From a virus, in the UHGV virus genome UHGV-1351772: a stretch of DNA of 64,000 nt; one strand, written 5' to 3'. Position 1 is the stretch's first letter. Every line of letters begins with the position of its first letter. A program made the position numbers and the translations under genes. The notes beneath the pieces were generated by a model that searched no databases, was not told the DNA's origin, and saw only the letters and a list, made by a program, of their open reading frames with translations. Of the stretch, positions 1 to 12,471 are shown in pieces.

Positions 1-897
1 CCCAACCAATTCCGCAATCGCGGCACGCACCCAAGCCGTTGTGGAGATGCTCGTGTCGTTTGAATCTTTCGGGGGTGTTGGTGACGTCGGCTTACCCGTA
101 AAATTCGGCGAATGTTTGTTAGCCTTTAACTGTAGTTCGTCATTCAACTGCTTAACTGTAGACGGTGTAGCAGCCTCCGTCACGGATTCGCTAGTCAGGG
201 TATTGTTAAGTTTAACGATACCTTTACCAGTCGTACTAGCGTCGATTAAGCCCTGTGCAGCGATTTTCTCCGCACGCAGTGCAGCTGATTCCGAGCGCGT
301 AGCTGCGCCTTCTGAGCTTTCTTTATCTTTCGTGACCTGCGCAGCAACCTTTTCCACTGCGCCCTTACTGGCCTCAACTGAAGCTGCGGTATTTGCGATA
401 CTGGTAGCCGTCTGTTGTACTTGCCCGGCTTTTTGCGTAACCGTTTCTGCTTTCTTAGTTACATCAGCCGCTGCAGCCGTCACCGATTGTTCGCTTGTAG
501 CGATAGCTTGAGCTTTCTCATTTACCGACTGTAATACAGTATCTACGGCAGTTTTCGCGGCTAAAACTTCAGCGTGTTTTTTGCTAACCTCAGCAGTTTT
601 AGTGGCAACGGTTCCCGCTTGCTCGCTAACTGTGGAAGCTAACGTGTCAGTTTGTTGCTTCGCTGTTTCTGCTAAGTCTTTTGCTTGTGTGGCTTCTGTT
701 GCAGACTGTTGCGATTTGGCCGCCGCCGTTTGTGCGTCAGCAACCGCGTTTCTGACGGTGTCAATATCCGCAACAATCTCGCGGACAGGTAACTGATAAT
801 CCCTTTCGTCTTTCGAAAAAAGTAAAACGCCTTCACCGATATCCCCGGTGTATGGACGTAAATCGTGTAAACGAATTTTCTTTACCGCTTTAGCCAT
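1..897 (-). CDS. tail fibre protein, N-terminal ~299 aa (partial; gene runs past window start)
   Basis: ATG at 897-895, open frame to position 1; Ala/Gln/Thr-rich coiled region then conserved fibre motif GKGIVKLNNTLTSESVTEAATPSTVKQL...NFTGKPTSPTPP...TAWVRAAI as in lambda Stf / P2 H-type fibres; absent from ORF track because no stop in window. Confidence 0.6.
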   Translation of the reverse strand, partial: MAKAVKKIRLHDLRPYTGDIGEGVLLFSKDERDYQLPVREIVADIDTVRNAVADAQTAAAKSQQSATEATQAKDLAETAKQQTDTLASTVSEQAGTVATKTAEVSKKHAEVLAAKTAVDTVLQSVNEKAQAIATSEQSVTAAAADVTKKAETVTQKAGQVQQTATSIANTAASVEASKGAVEKVAAQVTKDKESSEGAATRSESAALRAEKIAAQGLIDASTTGKGIVKLNNTLTSESVTEAATPSTVKQLNDELQLKANKHSPNFTGKPTSPTPPKDSNDTSISTTAWVRAAIAELVG

Positions 898-1099
898 GAT
901 ATTTAATTCTCTATCGGGAGCTAAAAGATCTGAGGAAGTGTTTTACCCCTCAACATTTTTATAAGCGGATTATTATACTGGTTTTAATCCATCATCTTCT
1001 AACGTGAAAGTGATGCCCAACTCCGCGCTTCATGATTTGGGATTGTTAAGTTTTGATAAAAGTTTGCTTTGGCCTCCATTACCGGTAAAACGGTCAAGT

Positions 1100-1660
1100 T
1101 CATGTAGCCGGGTTTTCTTCAACTGAGTCGTCATCTGGAACCTCAAAGGTAAGAACAGCATCATCACCAATACAGAAGATCGCATCATCTTCGTTTGCTA
1201 ATGCTCGTTCTGTTGTATCGAATAACGTTACCATAAACGCATTCATCCACGCAGGAGAATCGTCAGCAACGTTAACAGCAATGGGTTCGTTACCTAAGGT
1301 GATATCTGCAGCACGTAAATCTTCGGGTTGTAAGTTCGTTCCGCAGAATTCATTTACAACACCTAAAATGTCACGAAGGTTGTCTTCAGTACCGTCTAAC
1401 GAAATCAAAATAGGTTCAGACGCTAACACTTCGTCCGCATCCAAACGGTCGTAATAAACAACCACAGAAGCACCATCAGGTTTCCTGATTTTTGTAATCT
1501 CTGTCAGTGTGTTACGACGCGAAGTGGTCGGGGACGGGTTTGCCATAGTGTTGCTAATACGGATTTCGTTTAGAGACAACCGTGAACCGTTATCGTGGTT
1601 GATTAAAGCGACCACCAATTCGGCTGAGGCCAGACTTAAATCAGGTACGTAAGTAGTCAC
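1100..1660 (-). CDS. hypothetical protein, acidic C-terminus
   Basis: Track ORF 1100..1693 starts inside terminator hairpin; in-frame GTG at 1660 preceded by GGGAGG 5 nt upstream. Confidence 0.35.
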   Translation of the reverse strand: MTTYVPDLSLASAELVVALINHDNGSRLSLNEIRISNTMANPSPTTSRRNTLTEITKIRKPDGASVVVYYDRLDADEVLASEPILISLDGTEDNLRDILGVVNEFCGTNLQPEDLRAADITLGNEPIAVNVADDSPAWMNAFMVTLFDTTERALANEDDAIFCIGDDAVLTFEVPDDDSVEENPAT

Positions 1661-1692
1661 TAAAACCTCCCAGATCAAAAAAAAATAAAACA

Positions 1693-1720
1693 CCTACCGC
1701 CCATAGAATCGGGCGGTAGG
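1693..1720 (-). terminator. rho-independent terminator
   Basis: 10 bp stem cctaccgccc/gggcggtagg, 8 nt loop, U-run on minus strand (plus 1671-1690 A-run). Confidence 0.6.
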
Positions 1721-1746
1721 CGGTCATTTTACAGCTAAATATCAAA

Positions 1747-2121
1747 TCAGACCGTTAGTTCTCCACATAACTCAACGTCGATACCGAACGTCATTCCCAC
1801 TTCTTGAAGTTTGTTCGCCAGTAGGTGACGATGACAAAACTTACCTGCGGGACAATAGCACATCAAAACCAAATCTTCGTGTCTAAGCAACGAGACCAAC
1901 GTTTCGGCATCGGTATCTAACAGTCGTTCGAGTTTGTACAAATACTTTACCGTGTATTCACGCTCAGCGGCAGCGTCTTGGGCAGAATTTTTATACGCCA
2001 TTAAGAAATCCCAGTCGGGGGCGAGTTCCTTTCGCCCTGACTTCACAGTGATATCCACTGCGTGAAATCCTTTTTGCTTAGCTAACCGCCACTTAGCGAG
2101 TTGTAGCGTCCAGATACGCAT
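1747..2121 (-). CDS. conserved hypothetical protein, DUF488-like (CYCPAGKFCHRH motif)
   Basis: ORF track; motif resemblance recalled from memory only. Confidence 0.4.
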   Translation of the reverse strand: MRIWTLQLAKWRLAKQKGFHAVDITVKSGRKELAPDWDFLMAYKNSAQDAAAEREYTVKYLYKLERLLDTDAETLVSLLRHEDLVLMCYCPAGKFCHRHLLANKLQEVGMTFGIDVELCGELTV

Positions 2122-2321
2122 TAGGAACGAGTCTGCGATTCAGCCATCAGCGCACAACTTTTTACAGCCTGTGCATGAAGCTCTGTACCTGGTGTGTAAT
2201 CCTTTATACAATCCTGATACAATTCACGTTTTGTTTCTAGAACACGATTATCGTACTCAGCACTTGCTAGTGCACCTGCGATAAGGATAAAAACTAGAAT
2301 CGGCAACCAAATTTTCATCAT
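2121..2321 (-). CDS. small secreted peptide with cleavable signal (ALASA|EY), two Cys
   Basis: N-terminal hydrophobic signal MMKIWLPILVFILIAGALASA; paralog of adjacent 2318..2527 (RELYQDC...C vs RETLYREC...C). Confidence 0.4.
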   Translation of the reverse strand: MMKIWLPILVFILIAGALASAEYDNRVLETKRELYQDCIKDYTPGTELHAQAVKSCALMAESQTRS

Positions 2322-2527
2322 CCATCTCCCATACGTTTAGCGTATTCCGTACACGCCATTACTAATTCGGCGTAACGTGGATTATCTACAGTAGTACCTG
2401 ACATACATTCACGGTAAAGGGTCTCTCTACGTGATTCGTCAGACGTCTTAACGTAGAACATCAGCATCGATACAATCAGCGCAGTTGAAACAATTGCCGA
2501 GATGATATATCCGTCATTTATTTTCAT
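2318..2527 (-). CDS. small membrane-anchored peptide, paralog of 2121..2321
   Basis: N-terminal TM segment, conserved RExLYxxC...A..V..C core. Confidence 0.4.
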   Translation of the reverse strand: MKINDGYIISAIVSTALIVSMLMFYVKTSDESRRETLYRECMSGTTVDNPRYAELVMACTEYAKRMGDG

Positions 2528-3044
2528 CTATAAAACACCATGGTTCTGGATAAAACTCTGTAAGTAAATCAACGTAAAAACTATGTAAATTTGTTAGTGT
2601 TATAACGCACCCTAACAAATCATGCTCAGTATGGTGATAAATCACTACAGATGTTTCTGATACCCGTTTAACATGTATATGGCCCACGTCTTTAATGCTC
2701 TGATACAATCGTCCGAAATCGACCGTACCGACAGCATCAGATGAATCCGTAACCGAGTACCGTATACGTGGGGTTTCATTATTTACTAACGAAAGAAATT
2801 TCTCCACACTTTCAGCATGGATTTGTTCCATAAAGGATAAGTGTGGGAACACTTCTTTACGTAACGCGCTGCTTGAAATCTTAGCAAAAACCTGACGTTC
2901 CGTTAAGCGCATTAACTCGCCCAATTTCTTCAAGTCTTTGTTATAATTCAGAAAAGCAACCACCTTTTCATCGTGCGTAATAGGCGGCCATTCGACCGCC
3001 TTTGCCCGACGTTGCTTAAACCAACTCGCAAGTCGCGCTATCAC
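2514..3044 (-). CDS. hypothetical protein
   Basis: ORF track, compact operon context. Confidence 0.4.
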   Translation of the reverse strand: MIARLASWFKQRRAKAVEWPPITHDEKVVAFLNYNKDLKKLGELMRLTERQVFAKISSSALRKEVFPHLSFMEQIHAESVEKFLSLVNNETPRIRYSVTDSSDAVGTVDFGRLYQSIKDVGHIHVKRVSETSVVIYHHTEHDLLGCVITLTNLHSFYVDLLTEFYPEPWCFIDENK

Positions 3045-3046
3045 GC

Positions 3047-3739
3047 TTAGTAATCCTCTTCCTGATTCACTACCGATTGGATACGGGATGCGACTTCGTT
3101 AGTGTCCAGGTCAGTTTCGTCTACCTTATCCACAAGTTTCTGTACTTTACGTACATGTGATTCGGTAATATCAAAACGACCACGATCAGCTAACAGCAAC
3201 GTTACCATGTCCTTACGTGTAACCATCAGTTCTTCTTCAGGTAAGTGTAAGGATTTGTCTAACAGACCCGAATGCATGAAGTTTTCCAGTAAGCGTTCTT
3301 CTCCCTGGTCAAAATCATAACGTTCATTAGGTGCAGCAACGAAAGCATAACCGAAGTAGTTTTCTTCCGTCTCACGTAGCGACTTGATGATTTTGTCACC
3401 GTGTTGACAGAAATCACTTAACGTGTAGTCGTCAAGCGTTGCCACGATGGTTTCTGCTTGCACGCCGTTATCTGTTTCGTACAGATGCGCAACCCACAGT
3501 TTCCAGTTACGTGGCTCGTCAAACAAACCACCGATTAACATATCGGTAGCCGCCATGCGCATACGCGGTGACGTTGTAAATTGGAAACCACGACCTGCGT
3601 ACGGACCGATAGGACGAATAGAACTACCGACGAAAGTAATGCGGTTTAGCGCATTTTCAGCAATGGTGTGCGCAGTACGGTTAGCAGCGGCTTTCGGGTT
3701 ATACTTTTTGTTACGCGGTTTCTTTTGTTTGGTAGCCAT
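3047..3739 (-). CDS. hypothetical protein, basic N-terminus
   Basis: ORF track. Confidence 0.45.
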   Translation of the reverse strand: MATKQKKPRNKKYNPKAAANRTAHTIAENALNRITFVGSSIRPIGPYAGRGFQFTTSPRMRMAATDMLIGGLFDEPRNWKLWVAHLYETDNGVQAETIVATLDDYTLSDFCQHGDKIIKSLRETEENYFGYAFVAAPNERYDFDQGEERLLENFMHSGLLDKSLHLPEEELMVTRKDMVTLLLADRGRFDITESHVRKVQKLVDKVDETDLDTNEVASRIQSVVNQEEDY

Positions 3740-4221
3740 TATTTATTCTCAACTAATACTGTGTGGAATGCTTTATAAAGAGCCTGTCGTGCCTCAATTA
3801 ATACTGGACGATTAATCAAGCACATGTATCCGATTTTCCAAGACCAGTAAGACGTGTCATCGGTATTTAACCCGTAATCAGGTTCAAGATATACCAAATC
3901 AGTGTATGCATCTGGTATATAAAGACGACACAAACTAAGATTCCAGAAATTCGGTAAATCCGATTTTGCAAGTTCACTCATTAGCCGCATTGGAATCTGT
4001 CTTCCAATAGCGTCCGTTGCAAAAACGATATGCAGATTTCCAGGTGACTTAGAATACATACCGTGACCTTCACAACTCCACATTGTCGCCAGGTGCGGAT
4101 GGTCGTTGATTAGTTTACAGGTATCACGAACACCTTTTTCAATATAGCCGTTTTTAACTGCAAACTGAGCACGCTCTTTAAATGACGCTAATCTTTCTGC
4201 GTCAACGGAAAATTGAATCAT
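3739..4221 (-). CDS. hypothetical protein
   Basis: ORF track; start overlaps upstream stop. Confidence 0.45.
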   Translation of the reverse strand: MIQFSVDAERLASFKERAQFAVKNGYIEKGVRDTCKLINDHPHLATMWSCEGHGMYSKSPGNLHIVFATDAIGRQIPMRLMSELAKSDLPNFWNLSLCRLYIPDAYTDLVYLEPDYGLNTDDTSYWSWKIGYMCLINRPVLIEARQALYKAFHTVLVENK

Positions 4222-4682
4222 GACGGATTCTTCCCTAAAATTATCTCGCGCATTTCCAGATAGGTGTCAAACGGCACCACGGTGTCTTTATAACGTAGCG
4301 TTACGTAGGTTACAAAATGTTGGGGTGCCAGGAAAGGACGTTTTGGTGACCCGTCGTGATTGTAATACTGCTTCGGACGATATTTGTTGAAAATATCTTC
4401 CCGTGGGAACAATGATTTCTGAATAACCACTTCCCAACGGTGTGGCGTTTCCAAGAGCCCAATACGGATCAGCATACCGTCTACCCACCGGCTCATGTTT
4501 TCGGTTAATACGAAACTGACGTGGTGGTGCTGTACCTCTGCTAACGCGACTTCGGGTTCTTTATCCAGTCGCATTAATACCGCAAACAGTGGGCGATAAT
4601 CAGAATCGTACAAGTCACGGAAAGCAGTTTTCTCACGCTGTTTAAACAACTCAACAATTTCTTTAGATTCGAAGTAATTCAT
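4218..4682 (-). CDS. hypothetical protein
   Basis: Internal ATG at 4682 (MNYFESK) with GGGGA RBS and ATGA overlap with upstream stop; track start 4724 less likely. Confidence 0.4.
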   Translation of the reverse strand: MNYFESKEIVELFKQREKTAFRDLYDSDYRPLFAVLMRLDKEPEVALAEVQHHHVSFVLTENMSRWVDGMLIRIGLLETPHRWEVVIQKSLFPREDIFNKYRPKQYYNHDGSPKRPFLAPQHFVTYVTLRYKDTVVPFDTYLEMREIILGKNPS

Positions 4683-5074
4683 TTTGAAATCCCCAATTCG
4701 TAAGTAACTAAATCGAACAAACACATTTCCAGCATCGCTTGATACAACGTGTGTTCCCCATTACCCACAAAACCATTGTTCAACATTTTATACGTATCTA
4801 TTCCAAACATCGTCTTTACGTCTATAGGACGTTTTTCGAGAATACGTAATAGCGATATTTCCATTACAATCCAATAAGCAGGCTCAACCTTAATTCTGAA
4901 TAACGGATTGATTTTACTTATTGTTTTATCCCAAATATTAAACCAGCGAACCCATTCTGTGCTATTCTGGGGTTTACGCAATCTAAGACGCGTATACGGT
5001 GAGTTGTTATATTGGTCGATAAATGTCTTAATGACATCAGCTTTTCTTGACATTATACCTATTATTGCGGTCAT
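4679..5074 (-). CDS. hypothetical protein
   Basis: ORF track. Confidence 0.4.
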   Translation of the reverse strand: MTAIIGIMSRKADVIKTFIDQYNNSPYTRLRLRKPQNSTEWVRWFNIWDKTISKINPLFRIKVEPAYWIVMEISLLRILEKRPIDVKTMFGIDTYKMLNNGFVGNGEHTLYQAMLEMCLFDLVTYELGISK

Positions 5075-5120
5075 CTCTATATTCTCCTAATCATTAAAAT
5101 AGCCGCAGTTGTAAAAAAGA

Positions 5121-5642
5121 CTACGGGTTAAAAGGCAGCGGTTTGCAATCCCGCTTTTTCAACTCCTCTACTAACTCAGGTAATGTACACCAACGTTTAA
5201 ATTGGTTGTTAGCTTTAAAGTGGCTGAGAATCTCCTCAATGCGCTCAATAGACCACTTCCCTTTCCCTACGTTGTCTAGATCCTTACGTACCGAGAGCGT
5301 CTCAATGGTAAACGCTAACTCTGAACTATCCGAGTGGTCGTACAACAATCTTACTGGTGTTGGTTGGTGTAGCGTAACACGCCACCCTGACTCTTTAGCC
5401 CAGTAGACGTCTTTAATTCGACCGCTGACGTCAATTACGGAACTGATATAAGTCCAATCACTATCCAGTTTGTTCTTTTCGGCGGTTAATGCATCTTCTA
5501 ATCGTAATGAGTTAGGAGACGGAATCCACCAACCGTACTTACCGTAATAATCGTCTATTACAGTAATACCTTCGTAATACAGATATTGTGTTTTTGTATT
5601 AACGAATATTTCATCGCCAATTAAGACAGCGTTTATCTTCAT
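5121..5642 (-). CDS. hypothetical protein
   Basis: ORF track. Confidence 0.45.
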   Translation of the reverse strand: MKINAVLIGDEIFVNTKTQYLYYEGITVIDDYYGKYGWWIPSPNSLRLEDALTAEKNKLDSDWTYISSVIDVSGRIKDVYWAKESGWRVTLHQPTPVRLLYDHSDSSELAFTIETLSVRKDLDNVGKGKWSIERIEEILSHFKANNQFKRWCTLPELVEELKKRDCKPLPFNP

Positions 5643-6130
5643 CGTAAGTGTTTCCTGTAAAATAAGTCGTACGTTTGTGATGAAGCTGTATCAATAGAAC
5701 CTACCAATGGCATAATTTTCTTTTCTGATATTCCGGTTGCCCAAGCAGCTCGCGCAAAACCTCCGCCAGAACCCGTTGTCCAAACCGCATTTTTATTTAT
5801 TACAAACGTTTTAAACTTATCTGCTACTAATGTCAGCCAATGTGTTTCTTTAGCCGTAAAAATGACGATTTGATCGTATATTCGCTCTTTTTCGATAAGA
5901 TCCGCAAGCAAGGGCTCAACCTTCTTACGTTTATCCTCGTCTAAATATTCTTCTATAGCAGCGGTAATCGACATTTTCCAAAACTCGGTGTCCAGTACAC
6001 GTTCGCCCGTGTAGAAAACAAACTTGTTTTTGTGTTTATGCAGTTTGGGCAATTCTTTAACCGTACCAGCATAATCCACAAGTCGGTCAGCTAAAATGTA
6101 ATCCTTTGTTACCAATACCGTTGTCATCAC
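5639..6130 (-). CDS. HslV/proteasome-beta-like Ntn-hydrolase (putative peptidase)
   Basis: N-terminus MMTTVLV (cf. HslV MTTIVSV, catalytic Thr after Met removal) and TTGSGGGFARAAWA matching HslV [14 protein letters not shown]; size 163 aa like HslV. Confidence 0.5.
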   Translation of the reverse strand: MMTTVLVTKDYILADRLVDYAGTVKELPKLHKHKNKFVFYTGERVLDTEFWKMSITAAIEEYLDEDKRKKVEPLLADLIEKERIYDQIVIFTAKETHWLTLVADKFKTFVINKNAVWTTGSGGGFARAAWATGISEKKIMPLVGSIDTASSQTYDLFYRKHLR

Positions 6131-6154
6131 ACACCTCGAAGAAAAATAAAAGTA

Positions 6155-6178
6155 CCCTCTCTCCTAACGGAGAGAGGG
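6155..6178 (-). terminator. rho-independent terminator
   Basis: ccctctctcc/ggagagaggg stem, 4 nt loop, U-run on minus strand. Confidence 0.65.
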
Positions 6179-6185
6179 GCACTGC

Positions 6186-6455
6186 TTAAATCTTACGGCT
6201 GCTACCGTAGCAGCCACAACCGGCTGTCGTTTTCGCAGCACTGACAGGCGCTAACGCAGCCATCGTACCATCGGCCTTAACAATGTGTAAGTTATTTACG
6301 CGAGTCAGACCTTTAAAGGTAATCTTCACACCCTTACGTAAACTCTTCACATCAAATCCGTCGAGTTTGAGTGTTTTAACTTTTTCAGGTTTACCTTCTT
6401 CGTAATAGGAAAGAACATTACCTGTACGTTTTTCAACAATATAAATCTTACCCAT
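6186..6455 (-). CDS. small hypothetical protein with Ala-rich linker and C-terminal GCGCYGSS motif
   Basis: ORF track; own promoter-like motif upstream and terminator downstream. Confidence 0.45.
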   Translation of the reverse strand: MGKIYIVEKRTGNVLSYYEEGKPEKVKTLKLDGFDVKSLRKGVKITFKGLTRVNNLHIVKADGTMAALAPVSAAKTTAGCGCYGSSRKI

Positions 6456-6485
6456 TTTAGATTACACCATTTAGTTAAGTGAGAA

Positions 6486-6512
6486 CTCTCACATAGATGA
6501 AATATATCTTAA
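6486..6512 (-). promoter_or_regulatory. conserved promoter-like motif (minus-strand cAGATATAT...TAgGTGAGAG), copy 1
   Basis: Shared 27 bp motif ~30-50 nt upstream of a start codon; GTGAGA...TCTCAC inverted repeat just downstream. Confidence 0.45.
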
Positions 6513-6525
6513 AATTTTTAAACCG

Positions 6526-6837
6526 TTAACTGAACAAAGCAATGTTAACCGACTTACCAGGTAGCGGGAAATGCTGTAGTTCTATTGACTGAAGTTTCCT
6601 GTCAATAGTCAGTATTTCATCAACGTTGGGCGTAAGACGGAATACGGCGCGTGGTAGCGTGAAAGGTACGTTCGTCGAGCAGTTGTTTAACAGTAACTGA
6701 TCCTGAGAATAGTCAATTTCTACCACCCTCGCAATTACCCAACGTTCGTGAATCTCGCCACCCAGCGGTGCAGTTAGTGCCCGTTGCAAGCGCTGTGAAT
6801 TCGTTTCATCGGTATTAGTGTGGTTTTGGTTCGACAT
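6526..6837 (-). CDS. hypothetical protein
   Basis: Track ORF 6526..6948 overlaps upstream gene by >100 nt; internal ATG 6837 (MSNQNH) more plausible. Confidence 0.3.
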   Translation of the reverse strand: MSNQNHTNTDETNSQRLQRALTAPLGGEIHERWVIARVVEIDYSQDQLLLNNCSTNVPFTLPRAVFRLTPNVDEILTIDRKLQSIELQHFPLPGKSVNIALFS

Positions 6838-7132
6838 AAGTTTCCCCAAACACGTACGCAGATTCTGTTTCAAGCGTCGGTTTAGCGACACGCCACTTCC
6901 ATGCACCGGTTTCAGGATCTTGCCAGGACAACAAAAGAGAACCCTCACAGATTTCAGAGGTATCGACCTCAGGGTGGAACAGCATGAATTCGTTTTCGTT
7001 GTCGTCCACTACGACGAATTGACCTTCTTCTACCCTTTCGAACTTAGCAACGCCTACTACAGTTGCTGGCTCGCCAACAGTAAATACCATTTCTTGTTTT
7101 GGTAAATCACGGTGAATCGCACTTAACCACAT
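6815..7132 (-). CDS. small acidic hypothetical protein
   Basis: ORF track; D/E-rich. Confidence 0.4.
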   Translation of the reverse strand: MWLSAIHRDLPKQEMVFTVGEPATVVGVAKFERVEEGQFVVVDDNENEFMLFHPEVDTSEICEGSLLLSWQDPETGAWKWRVAKPTLETESAYVFGETYVEPKPH

Positions 7133-7202
7133 TTAAGCTGTTCCTCAATTAATTTTGTTTACGTGTGCATAATTAGACACGAAACCGTAAAAATAAATAC
7201 TC

Positions 7203-7226
7203 CCTCTCTCCGTTTGGAGAGAGGGT
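7203..7226 (-). terminator. rho-independent terminator (near-identical stem to 6155-6178)
   Basis: ccctctctcc gttt ggagagaggg, U-run on minus strand. Confidence 0.65.
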
Positions 7227-7230
7227 AAGT

Positions 7231-7737
7231 TTACAGTACGTTTTCTTCTCGATCGTCTACTAAAATCGAAGTAATCACATAACGCGCTAAACGACTGCGT
7301 GCTTCTTCCGTTTCTTCTTCAGAAGGTAACTGTTCGCCCGCAGGTGCACACAACGTTAGCCCAGACTCACGAAGCTGCTCGGTATAGTCTTCCACAGCGC
7401 TGTCGAACGTACCACGAATACCTGCTACCGCATCCATAATTTCGTCGTTCGGAATAATGGATTCTTTTAGCACGGCGTGAGCATCCGTAGGCTCCACCAT
7501 TTGCAGGTTCTGTTCTACCAACAACGCCTGTTTCGCTAAGCTGTCGGTGATAAAGCAAGATAGAATCTTTTCGAAATCGTCTAACGAGAATTCGGTGTCT
7601 TCAGATGCCCCGGTAATCAATTGCCCGTAGCGATTAAAGAATTCTTTACAACGTGTTTCGTAGTCAGCTTCTAAGTCGCGAACACCGAGATCAAAATCGT
7701 GCTGCTCCAGCTGATTAAAATCCAGAGTCTCTTTCAT
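7231..7737 (-). CDS. acidic hypothetical protein
   Basis: ORF track; strongly D/E-rich. Confidence 0.45.
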   Translation of the reverse strand: MKETLDFNQLEQHDFDLGVRDLEADYETRCKEFFNRYGQLITGASEDTEFSLDDFEKILSCFITDSLAKQALLVEQNLQMVEPTDAHAVLKESIIPNDEIMDAVAGIRGTFDSAVEDYTEQLRESGLTLCAPAGEQLPSEEETEEARSRLARYVITSILVDDREENVL

Positions 7738-7775
7738 CTCTAAGTCTCCAGTTAAGAGGTCATATTACCTGCTGG

Positions 7776-8003
7776 TTAGAGTGCCAACGTTAACCCGGTA
7801 TGGGTTTCTACTGAACCAACACCGTCACGCGCTTTTGCTTTGGCGATGAGTTTGTCAATCACGCGCTGATGGCTACGAGTAATGACTTTACCTGGATAAC
7901 CGATAATCAGCACGTTCTCAGTATTAATAACCGCCGAGAATTCGTTATCACCTGCGACGTAAGTAATCTTTTTGTCTTTGGTTACAATACGTTTGATTTC
8001 CAT
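7776..8003 (-). CDS. small hypothetical protein
   Basis: ORF track. Confidence 0.35.
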   Translation of the reverse strand: MEIKRIVTKDKKITYVAGDNEFSAVINTENVLIIGYPGKVITRSHQRVIDKLIAKAKARDGVGSVETHTGLTLAL

Positions 8004-8012
8004 TCAATGTCC

Positions 8013-8786
8013 TTAAAAGATAAAATGGCCAGTTAATGCTTCTACTTCAACACCAGGCATCGCCGGTGGTGCTGAGTATGGAAAAGTAAGACGCACGGCT
8101 GCACCCTTTAAATACGCAATACGGCAGTATGTGGTTAAGAGTGCATTCCCGTAAGTACAGTCGTTATAGAAGAAACCTTCGGTGGCAAACGTCTTTTCGT
8201 TGATTTTCGAATAGACTAAGATACCTTCAACTTTACCGTCTTTACGACAGCACAGCCCTTCGGCAGCCCCAATCGCTAACAAACCCAGGCAGTACGTATC
8301 CAAGCTGACATTAGCCACCTTAGGAATCGTAAACGTTTCTTCTAATGTTAGAGATTCAATATCATCTACATCAGGTAAATCGGTACGAACTTCAGGTTTT
8401 TCAGTAAACGTCAGCTCATAGTCGATAGACGTCGGTTGCATACTCAAAAACGCCATTAACTGATCGCGACGTTTTAGGTCGTTGGCAGGGTAGGTGATAT
8501 CAAACACCTCCACACTTAACAAACGTTTGAGTTGTGCGAAATTGATGTTCTTCTTCGCAAACACAACGATTGCTGACATGTAGAAAATCTTACCGTCAGT
8601 GCGGCCGGAGAAGATTCCTTGTAGCTGATTCGTGTTCGAAAGAATAATAAAGGTCGGATCTTCAGATTCGCGAATGACGTCCTTTTCCAGTAACCCTTTC
8701 CGTACACGGGTTAGCGAAACCATTTTGCCATCCACACCAATTGCTAAATGGTCATTACGATAATCGTGGATATCCACTATGCGCAT
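8013..8786 (-). CDS. hypothetical protein, translationally coupled to dam
   Basis: ORF track; ATGA overlap with dam stop at 8786. Confidence 0.45.
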   Translation of the reverse strand: MRIVDIHDYRNDHLAIGVDGKMVSLTRVRKGLLEKDVIRESEDPTFIILSNTNQLQGIFSGRTDGKIFYMSAIVVFAKKNINFAQLKRLLSVEVFDITYPANDLKRRDQLMAFLSMQPTSIDYELTFTEKPEVRTDLPDVDDIESLTLEETFTIPKVANVSLDTYCLGLLAIGAAEGLCCRKDGKVEGILVYSKINEKTFATEGFFYNDCTYGNALLTTYCRIAYLKGAAVRLTFPYSAPPAMPGVEVEALTGHFIF

Positions 8787-9601
8787 TAGAGCACTCCCAG
8801 TAATTCAGTCACCGTTTTCCGAGCGGCACCAGACGCACCCATATAGCGACCAACCTCAATACTGCGCCACTCAAAACCGTAATAAATTTCTCGGGTGAGT
8901 AGGGTGTCTGCATTTGACAGCACGACGCTGTTGCCACGTTCCACCTGCTGCTGTAGTAACTTGGCTAATTCCCGATGATCCGTTTGTGAGAATTCTTTAC
9001 GGTGGTATTGCGCATGTTTCGCGGTATCCGATAACGGAATATAAGGAGGATCAGCATAAATCACGGCATCCTCAGGTGTCCGCGCTAAGACAGAACGAAA
9101 GTCCTCACAAACAATTTCCAGATACTCAACTTCTGTGCAACGTTTAGCCCAATCCCGAATTTCTTCTAATGGATAATAAACGCCGTTCGGGTAACGTCCA
9201 AACGGAACATTGAACCCACCACTACTGTTATAGCGACACATCCCATTATAACCATGACGCATTAAGTATAAAAACATCGCGGCACGTTCAACCTCGGTCA
9301 TCGTTTTACCGCTATTAAACAGTTCACGACGTTCCATATACTTTACAGTGGCATTACCGTCTAAGAACAACGGTTGCGATGCAGCGATCAGTTCTTCAGG
9401 CTGTTCACGCGCAACACAAAGTAAGCGTATCAAATCGGGGTTAGAATCCGATAGAATATACCGGCTGTAATTCGTATTTAGGAAAACAGACCCTGCGCCC
9501 ACAAACGGTTCTACAAAGGTTGTACGTTTAGGTAAGACCTTCTGTAATTCACCCAAAACGCGTGTTTTCCCACCCATCCATTTAATTATCGGTTTCCGCA
9601 T
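8786..9601 (-). CDS. dam: DNA adenine methyltransferase (Dam family)
   Basis: N-terminus IIKWMGGK...FVEPFVGAGSV (AdoMet site) and DPPY catalytic motif, ~270 aa. Confidence 0.85.
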   Translation of the reverse strand: MRKPIIKWMGGKTRVLGELQKVLPKRTTFVEPFVGAGSVFLNTNYSRYILSDSNPDLIRLLCVAREQPEELIAASQPLFLDGNATVKYMERRELFNSGKTMTEVERAAMFLYLMRHGYNGMCRYNSSGGFNVPFGRYPNGVYYPLEEIRDWAKRCTEVEYLEIVCEDFRSVLARTPEDAVIYADPPYIPLSDTAKHAQYHRKEFSQTDHRELAKLLQQQVERGNSVVLSNADTLLTREIYYGFEWRSIEVGRYMGASGAARKTVTELLGVL

Positions 9602-10580
9602 TATATCCGCCTTGTAACGATGACACTTCGTCGACTAACACCAATTTGACATGATTTTTCTGACGCTCCCAACTGACGACGTTTTCGTCACGCACTAAAA
9701 CAAATTCGTATTCGTAGGGGCGAAATTTAAATAATTCGACGGCCAGGTGCCTGAATGCAGGGTTGTTATTGAAACACCCTATCTCTAATGGTGCCGCTGT
9801 TGTCGATGCAATTTGTAGGGCACGATACAACAAAGTCCGTCCGATACCACGACCCCGATGTGTCTCACTTACCGCAATGGCTTTTAATTCACATTCGTTA
9901 AGATTACGCAATTTAACTTGCACCGCGCCCACAATATCGTTGCCGTCCATCCAAACGTAAGTATGGTGGTTGACATGACGTACTAACTCCACCAACGTTT
10001 CGACTTGTGGCATGATTTGACGTGAGCGACTCACAGGGTCAGCGTTGATGTTTTCAACGACACTCGTACCCAAAAGCAACATAAGCTGTTCGCGTTGTGT
10101 GGCGGTTAACTCTTTATAAAAATCACCGGAGATGTTCTTCACGTTTGTTGGTAGAGCGATATCCAACAACGAGCGTGTACCTAAACGATACGTAGTGTGG
10201 GTGTGTCTAAATCCTAAGTCATTAAGCTCAGCGATTTCTTCTACACCACTGGCGATTCGATTAAGGTACGTAAAACCGGTATAGTCGAGTACCAGTAGCA
10301 GGTTCAGTTTGTTCAAACAACCCGGTACAATTTCATGCATGTACAAGCAGTGTAACGTTGGGTCGCCGTAAATGTGTTTTGTGATGATAAACCCTTGGAT
10401 TGTTTTTCCTTTTTGTAAAGAGAACGTATTCAGTTCACTATTGCACAACGCCTCACGAATCACCGCGCCGTTAGGGCCCGATAAACATGCCTGAAGTTGA
10501 GGGTTGCGAATATCTCTACGTGCTAACCGACCTACTGTTAAATCCGTGGCGGTATGTTTTATAATCTTCATAAAAGCCAT
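9582..10580 (-). CDS. GNAT-family acetyltransferase with ~170 aa N-terminal extension
   Basis: C-terminal half carries acetyl-CoA motif AIAVSETHRGRGIGRTLL; AAGGAG RBS 8 nt upstream of ATG 10580. Confidence 0.55.
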   Translation of the reverse strand: MAFMKIIKHTATDLTVGRLARRDIRNPQLQACLSGPNGAVIREALCNSELNTFSLQKGKTIQGFIITKHIYGDPTLHCLYMHEIVPGCLNKLNLLLVLDYTGFTYLNRIASGVEEIAELNDLGFRHTHTTYRLGTRSLLDIALPTNVKNISGDFYKELTATQREQLMLLLGTSVVENINADPVSRSRQIMPQVETLVELVRHVNHHTYVWMDGNDIVGAVQVKLRNLNECELKAIAVSETHRGRGIGRTLLYRALQIASTTAAPLEIGCFNNNPAFRHLAVELFKFRPYEYEFVLVRDENVVSWERQKNHVKLVLVDEVSSLQGGYNAETDN

Positions 10581-10644
10581 GTTAATTACTCCTTAAAAGG
10601 TCGTCTCAAAACAATACGCTAAAGTTGTAAAAACAAAAAAGAAA

Positions 10645-10662
10645 GGGGAACCGAAGTTCCCC
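10645..10662 (-). terminator. rho-independent terminator
   Basis: ggggaac cgaa gttcccc, preceded on plus by A-run. Confidence 0.6.
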
Positions 10663-10674
10663 AATTATTAAACA

Positions 10675-11346
10675 TCATGCAGAAGGGGCAGAGTTTGTAA
10701 AAGCAAGATTGGGTGTCAAGCCAGCTTTCCCTAATTTTTCATACAGGTAGTTGAAAAATCTGAGATGGGCATCGTAGTGGCCAGCCGCTACTCGCTGGCC
10801 GTAAACTTCTACCAAGTCAGGCGAAAACTTAATATGGCAGTTTTGTCTAGAGAACAAAGGTTGTTGCACCCCACCCTTAATTAAGATGCGATACTTTTTA
10901 CCGTCGTCTGTTACGGCGTGAAGAATATTTGTACTGAAATGGAAATAGATAGAAGGGTTAAAACACAACCAGGTGGCGGCATTGATTAGCAAGTCAGCTA
11001 ACTTAACAGCGATTTTGTCAAGTTCAGGCCCTTCAAACTTATGCATTAACCGCAGAAGAATTTCAGTAATAACCGTGCCTGTAAGTAATTTGTCTCTATT
11101 GAGACCAGGTGCAACCGCCAAAACATCACCATTATAAGTGCAGACAAGTGTGAATAAGTTGAAAGGCTGGTCTTGATAAAGTTCGAAAACCAGGTCAGTA
11201 TACGGGCTAAAAGTTAAGAATTTCACCCCGAGTATTTCATTAACGCAGGGTAAAAGCTCAACTTTCACAGGCGGTTGTGCTTCGTTAACTTTAGTCTCGT
11301 TCTTTACAGTTTCTTCAATTACGGTTTTACCAATTTTCGGTGGCAT
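10675..11346 (-). CDS. hypothetical protein
   Basis: ORF track. Confidence 0.45.
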   Translation of the reverse strand: MPPKIGKTVIEETVKNETKVNEAQPPVKVELLPCVNEILGVKFLTFSPYTDLVFELYQDQPFNLFTLVCTYNGDVLAVAPGLNRDKLLTGTVITEILLRLMHKFEGPELDKIAVKLADLLINAATWLCFNPSIYFHFSTNILHAVTDDGKKYRILIKGGVQQPLFSRQNCHIKFSPDLVEVYGQRVAAGHYDAHLRFFNYLYEKLGKAGLTPNLAFTNSAPSA

Positions 11347-11367
11347 GATAATACTCCTTCAGGTTGA

Positions 11368-11727
11368 TTAGTGCGTTGCGGTGTTAGTGATAAAACGCAC
11401 ATTCTTCGTGGTGCGTTTAATGGACGTGTTTGCAACGTAGTCCAACGCTGATTCTACGTGAACGGTTACTGAGCAACGACCCTTAACGGAATTAAAACTA
11501 ATCTGGTATTTCAGACGAATCGCATCAGCAACTTTCATCATAATCGGCAAACTTAAACGTTCTGAGTGATCGTTCTTAATAGACGAGATAACAGGTTGTG
11601 AAACTTTCGCAAGCTGGGCAAGTTCACGCTGAGTAATGTCTTTTGTGGTCAAATGACGAATTACGTAAGACAAGTGAAGACCGAATTTACGTTTTGCCAG
11701 AACGATGGAATTGTGATTGTAAGCCAT
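11368..11727 (-). CDS. helix-turn-helix DNA-binding protein (XRE-like)
   Basis: ITQRELAQLAKVSQPVISSI HTH-like segment; AAAGGAG RBS. Confidence 0.45.
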   Translation of the reverse strand: MAYNHNSIVLAKRKFGLHLSYVIRHLTTKDITQRELAQLAKVSQPVISSIKNDHSERLSLPIMMKVADAIRLKYQISFNSVKGRCSVTVHVESALDYVANTSIKRTTKNVRFITNTATH

Positions 11728-11776
11728 TGTAAATACTCCTTTAGGTTAACAAGTCGGTGTAAAGAGTTAATCATAA

Positions 11777-11803
11777 CTCTCACCTAAGTAAAATATATCT
11801 GAG
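11777..11803 (-). promoter_or_regulatory. conserved promoter-like motif, copy 2
   Basis: ctctcacctaagtaaaatatatctgag; upstream of HTH gene. Confidence 0.45.
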
Positions 11804-11818
11804 AAAAAATAAAATATA

Positions 11819-11840
11819 GGTACCACCGTTGGGTGGTACC
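11819..11840 (-). terminator. rho-independent terminator
   Basis: ggtaccacc/ggtggtacc stem, U-run on minus strand. Confidence 0.55.
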
Positions 11841-11847
11841 TAAGCGG

Positions 11848-12471
11848 TTAGTTTGCTAAAATGTGCGTAACAATCTCAGCGGCTTTCAAACGGTAATCGT
11901 CATTCTGCGTTACTGGTAATAATGCGTGAAGACAACCACCTTCTGTTAAGATGTGATGCGCGAAACGATAATGGTCGCGTAGGCCATCCCAACATTGATT
12001 GTCCATTAGATACTTAACCGTAAGTACCTCATCGTCCCAATTCTTACCTTGTTCTTCTACACGTTTCTTAAATCGCGCTAACGCTGTTGGGTAATCAACA
12101 TCAGTCCAAACATAAAGGTCGGGTGCGTGGAAATGACGAGTTAGCTTACGTTGGAAAACTACGTCCTTGCCATCTGTCCCCTGATAAACAATCGTTGAAG
12201 GGCAAAAACGATCGAAAATGACGACATCGTACTCGTCAACAACATGGTCTAACGTGTGAAGGAAGTCATCACACATTGCTTCAGCAATTTTTGTTTTCGA
12301 AGCAGACTGTACAACCAAGCTACGTGCACGAATACCCGCCTCGGTTTCAGACGTCGGATGGTTCCGAATACACACTTTTAATCCTGCGGACTCCAACATC
12401 GCTTTTACCATTTTACACAACGTTGATTTCCCAGAAAAATCAGGACCATCAATAGACACGGTCTTAAGCAT
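11848..12471 (-). CDS. thymidylate kinase / dNMP-kinase-like P-loop kinase
   Basis: Walker A GPDFSGKST at N-terminus, ~200 aa. Confidence 0.6.
   Translation of the reverse strand: MLKTVSIDGPDFSGKSTLCKMVKAMLESAGLKVCIRNHPTSETEAGIRARSLVVQSASKTKIAEAMCDDFLHTLDHVVDEYDVVIFDRFCPSTIVYQGTDGKDVVFQRKLTRHFHAPDLYVWTDVDYPTALARFKKRVEEQGKNWDDEVLTVKYLMDNQCWDGLRDHYRFAHHILTEGGCLHALLPVTQNDDYRLKAAEIVTHILAN

Follow-up and report, generated by a model that had tools for sequence, protein, structure and literature searches.

A predicted HslV-like N-terminal-threonine peptidase without a neighbouring HslU-like ATPase in a lineage of phiKZ-like jumbo phages

The gene described here lies in the virus genome UHGV-1351772, from which a stretch of 64,000 nucleotides (the window) was analysed. 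It occupies positions 5639..6127 on the minus strand and encodes a putative HslV-like N-terminal-threonine peptidase of 162 residues, followed by a TGA stop. The longest frame on this strand covers 5639..6130 and counts 163 residues from a GTG at 6130, and the original prediction had accordingly described a protein of 163 residues starting with MMTTVLV. The ATG at 6125-6127, one codon inside the GTG, is almost certainly the true start, because a GAGG ribosome-binding site (6134..6137, minus strand, read from the sequence) is located 6 nt upstream of it and because all 56 close homologues are 162 residues long and begin with MTT. With this start the predicted product begins with MTTVLV and has no propeptide. 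Methionine aminopeptidase accepts Met-Thr as a substrate but not Met-Met-Thr, and E. coli HslV is matured in this way; the Met-Thr start would therefore allow the host enzyme to expose Thr1, which a Met-Met-Thr start would not. Downstream, the stop codon runs into the start codon of the following gene, g173 (5121..5642, minus strand, 173 residues, phrog_25529), to give the overlap ATGA, as read from the sequence. Upstream, a hairpin at 6155..6178 (minus strand) with a perfect 10-bp, GC-rich stem including 7 GC pairs and a T-rich tail is found between a gene of 89 residues and the ribosome-binding site. It is the sole site of this kind in 4500..7000 and is likely to be an intrinsic terminator or attenuator that divides two transcription units. 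The 56 close homologues, together with more distant ones, indicate that the HslV-like gene is real, and it is under purifying selection, with pairwise ratios of non-synonymous to synonymous substitution rates (dN/dS) of 0.07-0.20 within the lineage.

As judged from its sequence, the protein is a compact, propeptide-less N-terminal nucleophile (Ntn) peptidase of a phage-specific branch of the proteasome-beta/HslV superfamily (MEROPS clan PB, family T1). The proteasome fold and the membership in the proteasome/HslV superfamily can be assigned with great confidence, and both the profile and the structure comparisons gave proteasome-fold matches, in line with the HslV/proteasome-like hydrolase first proposed. 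The AlphaFold model of the monomer (predicted local distance difference test, pLDDT, 85.9) has the Ntn alpha-beta-beta-alpha sandwich, and in a Foldseek comparison with the PDB the HslV proteins of T. brucei, E. coli and S. aureus were found on top (E 2e-7 to 8e-5), with 20S beta subunits next. Single-sequence searches with the protein gave no match in Pfam at the PF00227 threshold or in the PDB, and profiles were required. A family profile built from 24 sequences matched the solved T. brucei HslV (4hnz, E 2.8e-5) among the PDB sequences. Comparison with bacterial HslV by hhalign gave a probability of 84.7% with this profile, and of 97.1% (E 7.3e-11, 147 columns, residue 1 on residue 1) with a profile of 59 sequences. 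In PHROGs the protein matched phrog_23394 over its full length (E 1.7e-9) and phrog_1040, named 'peptidase HslV family' (E 1.4e-5). The Pfam Proteasome model was matched individually by 9 of the 59 relatives, and TIGR03692, the HslV equivalog, by only 6 (best E 1.3e-5). Distant homologues with 25-29% identity occur in Erwinia jumbo phages of Machinavirus and Derbicusvirus. An exhaustive profile search gave 133 representatives after clustering at 50%, nearly all of them 140-210 residues long and starting at profile position 1, and the BFVD holds 35 viral proteins of HslV-like fold at E<1e-3, which are mostly uncharacterised jumbo-phage proteins.

By sequence, the protein keeps the full T1 catalytic set. 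This comprises Thr1, Asp17 and Lys33 together with the Gly-Ser-Gly loop and a D-x-x-S pair; the conservation counts cover 151 family sequences, and all codons are on the minus strand. The predicted nucleophile is Thr2, which becomes Thr1 after removal of Met (codon ACA, 6122..6124) and is in register with Thr1 of HslV; Thr or Ser is found at this position in 149 of the 151 members, nearly all of which begin with M-T or M-S. Asp14 (6086..6088) and Lys28 (6044..6046), the equivalents of Asp17 and Lys33 in HslV and the 20S proteasome, are each kept in 150/151. Gly119-Ser120-Gly121 (5765..5773) corresponds in profile alignments to the Gly-Ser124-Gly loop of HslV (20S Ser129); both glycines are present in 150/151 and Ser or Thr at position 120 in 144/151. 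The motif TTGSGGGFARAAW at residues 117-129, with GSGGGFARAAW, also aligned to HslV in profile-profile alignments. Asp146 and Ser149 (5681..5692) show in the profile alignment the D-x-x-S spacing of 20S Asp166/Ser169, to which we take them to be equivalent from the known 20S numbering. They align to D-V-F-S of T. brucei HslV and are less strictly conserved (Asp146 in 132/151, Ser or Thr at 149 in 126/151). Thr1, Lys33 and the Gly-Ser-Gly loop, on which the original prediction laid weight, are thus invariant or nearly so across the relatives.

The stand-alone nature of the peptidase was also borne out. Neither the window nor the complete sister genome NZ_CP134650.1 (circular, 222,441 bp, ~84% identical to window 1-12000) contains an HslU/ClpX-like gene according to tblastn and hidden Markov model (HMM) searches with 61 HslU/ClpX-like queries, the HMM being derived from phage HslU-like proteins (best E 0.002-0.03). 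Pfam searches of the 20 largest open reading frames (ORFs) of the window agree with this, and the Prokaryotic Genome Annotation Pipeline (PGAP) annotation of the sister genome names no HslU-like protein. Of two weak candidates for AAA-like proteins found in the sister genome, one is a coiled-coil protein and the other has no domain match, and both were rejected. At the edge of the window (1..2600) no HslU-like gene was found, and the minus strand there enters a tail-fibre-like ORF. The HslU-like proteins P0102 and P0093 from ~225-kb contigs were likewise discarded as the lineage's own, as they belong to other phage lineages.

The situation in the relatives is different. In the Erwinia phages, the homologous peptidase is followed four to seven genes downstream by an HslU-like AAA+ ATPase (Phobos gp130, pEa_SNUABM_43_00130), and in a third related lineage, L021, such a gene likewise lies downstream of the peptidase. 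Synteny of the window with these phages extends from the acetyltransferase and the Dam methylase up to and including the peptidase. The slot taken by the ATPase in the relatives corresponds to 2121..3047 on the minus strand, where no ORFs other than those of 176, 69 and 66 residues are present in the window. It is anchored upstream by the homologue of Phobos gp125/S43_128 (window 3047..3739) and downstream by a DUF488-like gene (window 1747..2121), the counterpart of Phobos gp132 and of a gene in L021. In Phobos (Derbicusvirus) and L021 the HslU-like gene lies between both anchors; in Machinavirus, where a DUF488-like gene was not identified, it comes after S43_128 and one further gene. Three IMG/VR contigs of the lineage align contiguously across the slot, and a pattern-limited scan of these contigs gave no HslU-like match. 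Since the HslU-like ATPase is otherwise widespread and syntenic in the clade (Machina-, Derbicus-, Caitlin-, Wellington-, Seoulvirus-, CR5- and RAY-like phages), its absence is best read as a loss, in which the lineage would have shed the neighbouring ATPase and kept the peptidase.

A gene left behind in this manner could be a relic, i.e. the decaying remnant of a phage HslVU pair, or a decoy whose inactive subunits poison the rings of host HslV, and the vacated syntenic slot is what such an explanation would predict. We regard it as very unlikely. The dN/dS values given above are low even with saturating dS between the two alleles described below, every catalytic residue is kept, and co-assembly into host rings would be improbable at 16-20% identity to HslV.

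The peptidase is likely to be independent of the HslU-like ATPase, because the phage ATPases lack the tail by which HslU docks, because they often occur without a peptidase nearby, because selection on the peptidase was kept after the loss, and because phages of 40-50 kb carry HslV-family peptidases as well. The C-terminal tail of HslU has a role in docking and in the activation of HslV, and is received in E. coli HslV by a pocket with Phe54 and Phe57 (PMC6429459). Bacterial HslU ends in DL(S/T)(R/Q)FIL, whereas about 30 phage HslU-like proteins have no such tail, with the exception of P0103, whose tail is of the bacterial type. On the side of the peptidase, Phe54 and Phe57 map to polar or charged residues, either E48/K51 (24-sequence alignment) or T47/T55 (59-sequence alignment), where the alignment of the helix is unreliable. 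Within 12 kb of the HslU-like genes of SPAsTU, phage 1252, Wellington and RAY there is no HslV-like gene of the type described here, and in the 40-50 kb phages an HslU-like gene is neither annotated nor known. The HslU-like protein gp116 of RAY has been reported in the phage nucleus (bioRxiv 10.1101/2023.02.24.529968), which hints that the phage HslU-like protein has a role of its own.

Some further observations on the phage HslU-like ATPases may be added. They are proteins of 540-755 residues (L001 8832..10880, L002 8965..10701, P0073-P0102). Where HslU has its I-domain, between Walker A (GPTGxGKT) and Walker B (FxDExDK), they carry an insert that is very large and poorly conserved. The published claim that the Salmonella phage pSal-SNUABM-04 has HslV and no HslU (PMC7823757) does not hold, as an HslU-like gene is present at MT710307.1 106144..107874; its product is 91% identical to the ATPase of pEa_SNUABM_43 and is annotated as 'putative DnaA protein'. 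In an unrelated phage (L020, ENA ERZ27297904 k141_45740, 225,029 bp), a 731-residue HslU-like ATPase is clustered with thymidylate kinase, a GNAT acetyltransferase, GroES, GroEL and an NAD-dependent DNA ligase, so that this phage in effect encodes a neighbourhood of chaperone and unfoldase genes.

The tail motif also bears on the possibility that the phage peptidase hijacks the HslU of its host, by docking on the host hexamer to form a chimeric ATP-dependent protease of altered specificity, or by sequestering HslU. The hosts Salmonella and Enterobacter encode HslU with the canonical DLSRFIL tail, the lineage has no phage unfoldase of its own and yet maintains the peptidase under selection, and HslV is the nearest structural neighbour of the protein. 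Against this stand the identity to HslV of merely 16-20%, the polar or charged residues at the Phe54/Phe57 positions in both alignments, uncertain as the helix alignment is, and the HslU-like proteins of the relatives, which show no fitting tail, so that the family seemingly was not built for docking of this type. We therefore consider capture of host HslU as unlikely, although less so than a relic or decoy.

The gene g173 is found directly downstream of the peptidase gene in every lineage examined, among them Machinavirus, Derbicusvirus, L021 and the sister genome. The start/stop overlap is seen in the window and in the remote family member L034, where the match to g173 beside the peptidase is weaker (E 3.9e-5), and a 4-nt overlap is seen in L002 and L003. 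The gene has dN/dS values of 0.05-0.12 and a conserved motif Y-G-(W/F)-x-(F/I/L)-P near residue 37. The protein has no match in Pfam or the PDB, its profile finds no solved structure, and the single-sequence structure model (pLDDT 36.5) is unusable. The idea that g173 is a dead proteasome-like partner of the alpha type was rejected, as hhalign gave less than 1% both against the phage family and against HslV.

Such a tightly coupled and conserved partner gene would also fit a non-proteolytic Ntn enzyme, in which Thr1 serves acyl transfer as in a connectase-like ligase or transpeptidase, or in an amidase, with g173 as a possible substrate. It has been pointed out that divergent proteasome homologues can have functions other than proteolysis (Fuchs et al. 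2021, PMC8665760). However, the structure searches place HslV and the 20S beta subunits ahead of connectase and acylases, and the conserved residues are those of the T1 peptidases (Asp17, Lys33, and the Ser129-like and Asp166/Ser169-like positions), which makes an acyltransferase or amidase a doubtful candidate, more so than a peptidase acting with host HslU.

The explanation that we put first, and which we consider to have about an even chance of being correct, is that of an ATPase-independent peptidase that acts in the infected cell, probably together with g173. According to this model, host methionine aminopeptidase would remove Met from Met-Thr-Thr, thereby exposing Thr1 and activating the enzyme as for E. 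coli HslV. The protein would then form a self-compartmentalising ring particle like other T1 peptidases and work without an ATPase in the cytoplasm of the infected cell. The co-translated g173 could join in as an adaptor, a gate or a substrate, and the targets may be unfolded proteins, peptides, or one specific host or phage protein. A role as head-maturation protease is not expected, because the lineage has a separate prohead protease of the S80 family, annotated in the sister genome.

Several points weigh against this explanation. The protein has no NCBIfam match and stays below the Pfam and NCBIfam cut-offs. That the window phage itself is without HslU is drawn from one sister genome, three IMG/VR contigs and the lack of protein matches on the Salmonella contigs. 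The structure models are of the monomer, and the ring particle is a prediction; the proposed role of g173 is read from gene adjacency. Moreover, an ancestral functional link between the peptidase and the HslU-like protein may have existed, because three related lineages have the HslU-like gene downstream at a distance of four to seven genes. We found no experimental work in the literature on the function of phage HslV-like proteins.

The HslV-like gene occurs in two deeply diverged alleles, with 73-76% amino-acid identity and dS of 1.4-2.6 in comparisons of the window with L004, L005, L006 and NZ_CP134650.1. The contrast is sharpest for L006, in which the neighbouring genes are 90-99% identical to those of the window (dS 0.1-0.4). 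In L005 and in the sister genome, several neighbours are also strongly diverged, e.g. dam and g168. The identities of the close homologues are bimodal, at 85-96% and 71-78%. This pattern suggests recombinational replacement, or diversifying selection, at the HslV-like gene. It is tempting to speculate further that the HslV-like protein and g173 form an uncharacterised two-component phage module for proteolysis or acyl transfer, which would operate without a dedicated AAA+ unfoldase or capture host HslU. Its target would be a specific protein of the host, for instance one involved in defence or stress response, and the two alleles would then reflect an arms race over this target. We consider this proposal rather unlikely.

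The window comes from a phiKZ-like jumbo phage. Its Pfam matches include the PhiKZ major capsid protein (E 1.6e-208), three internal head proteins of phiKZ, a divergent DnaB and a tail tube protein. The HslV-like gene is one of a group of small genes without assigned function downstream of the Dam methylase, and close relatives of the gene are located on contigs of ~222-226 kb, which come from metagenomes and from assemblies of Salmonella isolates. The sister genome was deposited as 'plasmid unnamed1' of an Enterobacter ludwigii isolate, and contigs of ~224 kb from the same lineage occur in several assemblies of Salmonella isolates (serovars Javiana, Dublin and Enteritidis), which suggests an episomal or carrier-state persistence of the phage lineage in cultured isolates. 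At window 1..942 on the minus strand, an ORF that runs off the window start has Ala/Thr/Ser-rich coiled-coil-like repeats and a tail-fibre-type motif at its end, and corresponds to genes that are annotated in the sister genome as 'phage tail protein' and 'tail fiber domain-containing protein'. Outside the range of the window, the sister genome carries two adjacent radical SAM proteins beside a DUF4376 protein at 209652..211893 (L026 13652..15893).

Compared with known systems, the phage protein resembles bacterial HslV (ClpQ; MEROPS T1B; TIGR03692) in the Met-Thr-Thr start without propeptide, in having Thr1, Asp17, Lys33 and the Gly-Ser-Gly loop in register, and in its length (162 residues against ~175). 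It differs in its low identity of 16-20%, and in that it is followed by g173 and not by hslU, which is absent from the genome of the lineage. By these sequence comparisons the protein would not qualify as a bona fide HslV, because it falls below the family cut-offs and has no cognate HslU. The phage 'peptidase HslV family' proteins (phrog_1040, phrog_23394; Erwinia phages Phobos, EarlPhillipIV and Derbicus) are closer, with 25-29% identity over the full length and the same invariant residues, and the Erwinia relatives share the syntenic block, with the gene located downstream of the Dam methylase and followed by the g173 homologue, but carry the HslU-like ATPase that the window lineage is without. 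The SPN3US/EL-type protein is a different paralogue, which the sister genome has at another locus beyond the range of the window (88426..88926; L023 39426..39926). This second HslV-like protein of 166 residues (MTTIVFDG...ACDGQ...AIGSGAHYA) is of the widespread 'peptidase HslV family' type of SPN3US, phiEaH2 and EL, which is also found in Klebsiella and Escherichia phages of 40-50 kb. The 20S beta subunits and Anbu differ from the phage protein, which has no propeptide or alpha-type partner and is much shorter.

In a survey that described phage-borne proteasome homologues, Fuchs et al. 2021 (PMC8665760) found PPH, AAH and CPH among phages. The HslV-like protein falls within the compact group I homologues of that study (BPH, AAH, CPH and PPH), which it resembles in being compact and free of insertions and propeptide, and in having no known ATPase partner. 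It is set apart from PPH by description, since PPH has ~140 residues and is without helix H2 (PMC8665760), whereas the model of the 162-residue phage protein has both H1 (48-62) and H2 (67-80). The original prediction had called the possible roles of such an orphan phage peptidase unusual. The gene is less unusual than that, as this kind of protein is known from the RefSeq label 'peptidase HslV family' on homologues in Erwinia and Salmonella jumbo phages, a PHROGs family and the survey of Fuchs et al. 2021 (PMC8665760); the novelty was overstated, as phage proteasome homologues had already been annotated and surveyed bioinformatically. What is new, and specific for the lineage, is the loss of the HslU-like ATPase with retention of the peptidase, the absence of the HslU tail in the phage HslU-like proteins, the co-translated partner and the two alleles.

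Phage proteasome homologues are common in jumbo phages, and many of their RefSeq entries are labelled 'peptidase HslV family'. The lineage represents a natural experiment in which the peptidase was kept under purifying selection after the neighbouring ATPase was lost, and this retention argues that the function of the peptidase is separable from that ATPase. The analysis also singles out g173 as a conserved small partner worth studying. Should the enzyme be a generic peptidase, the gene would be an ordinary accessory gene; action through host HslU, or against host defence proteins, would represent a new route by which a phage takes over the proteostasis of its host.

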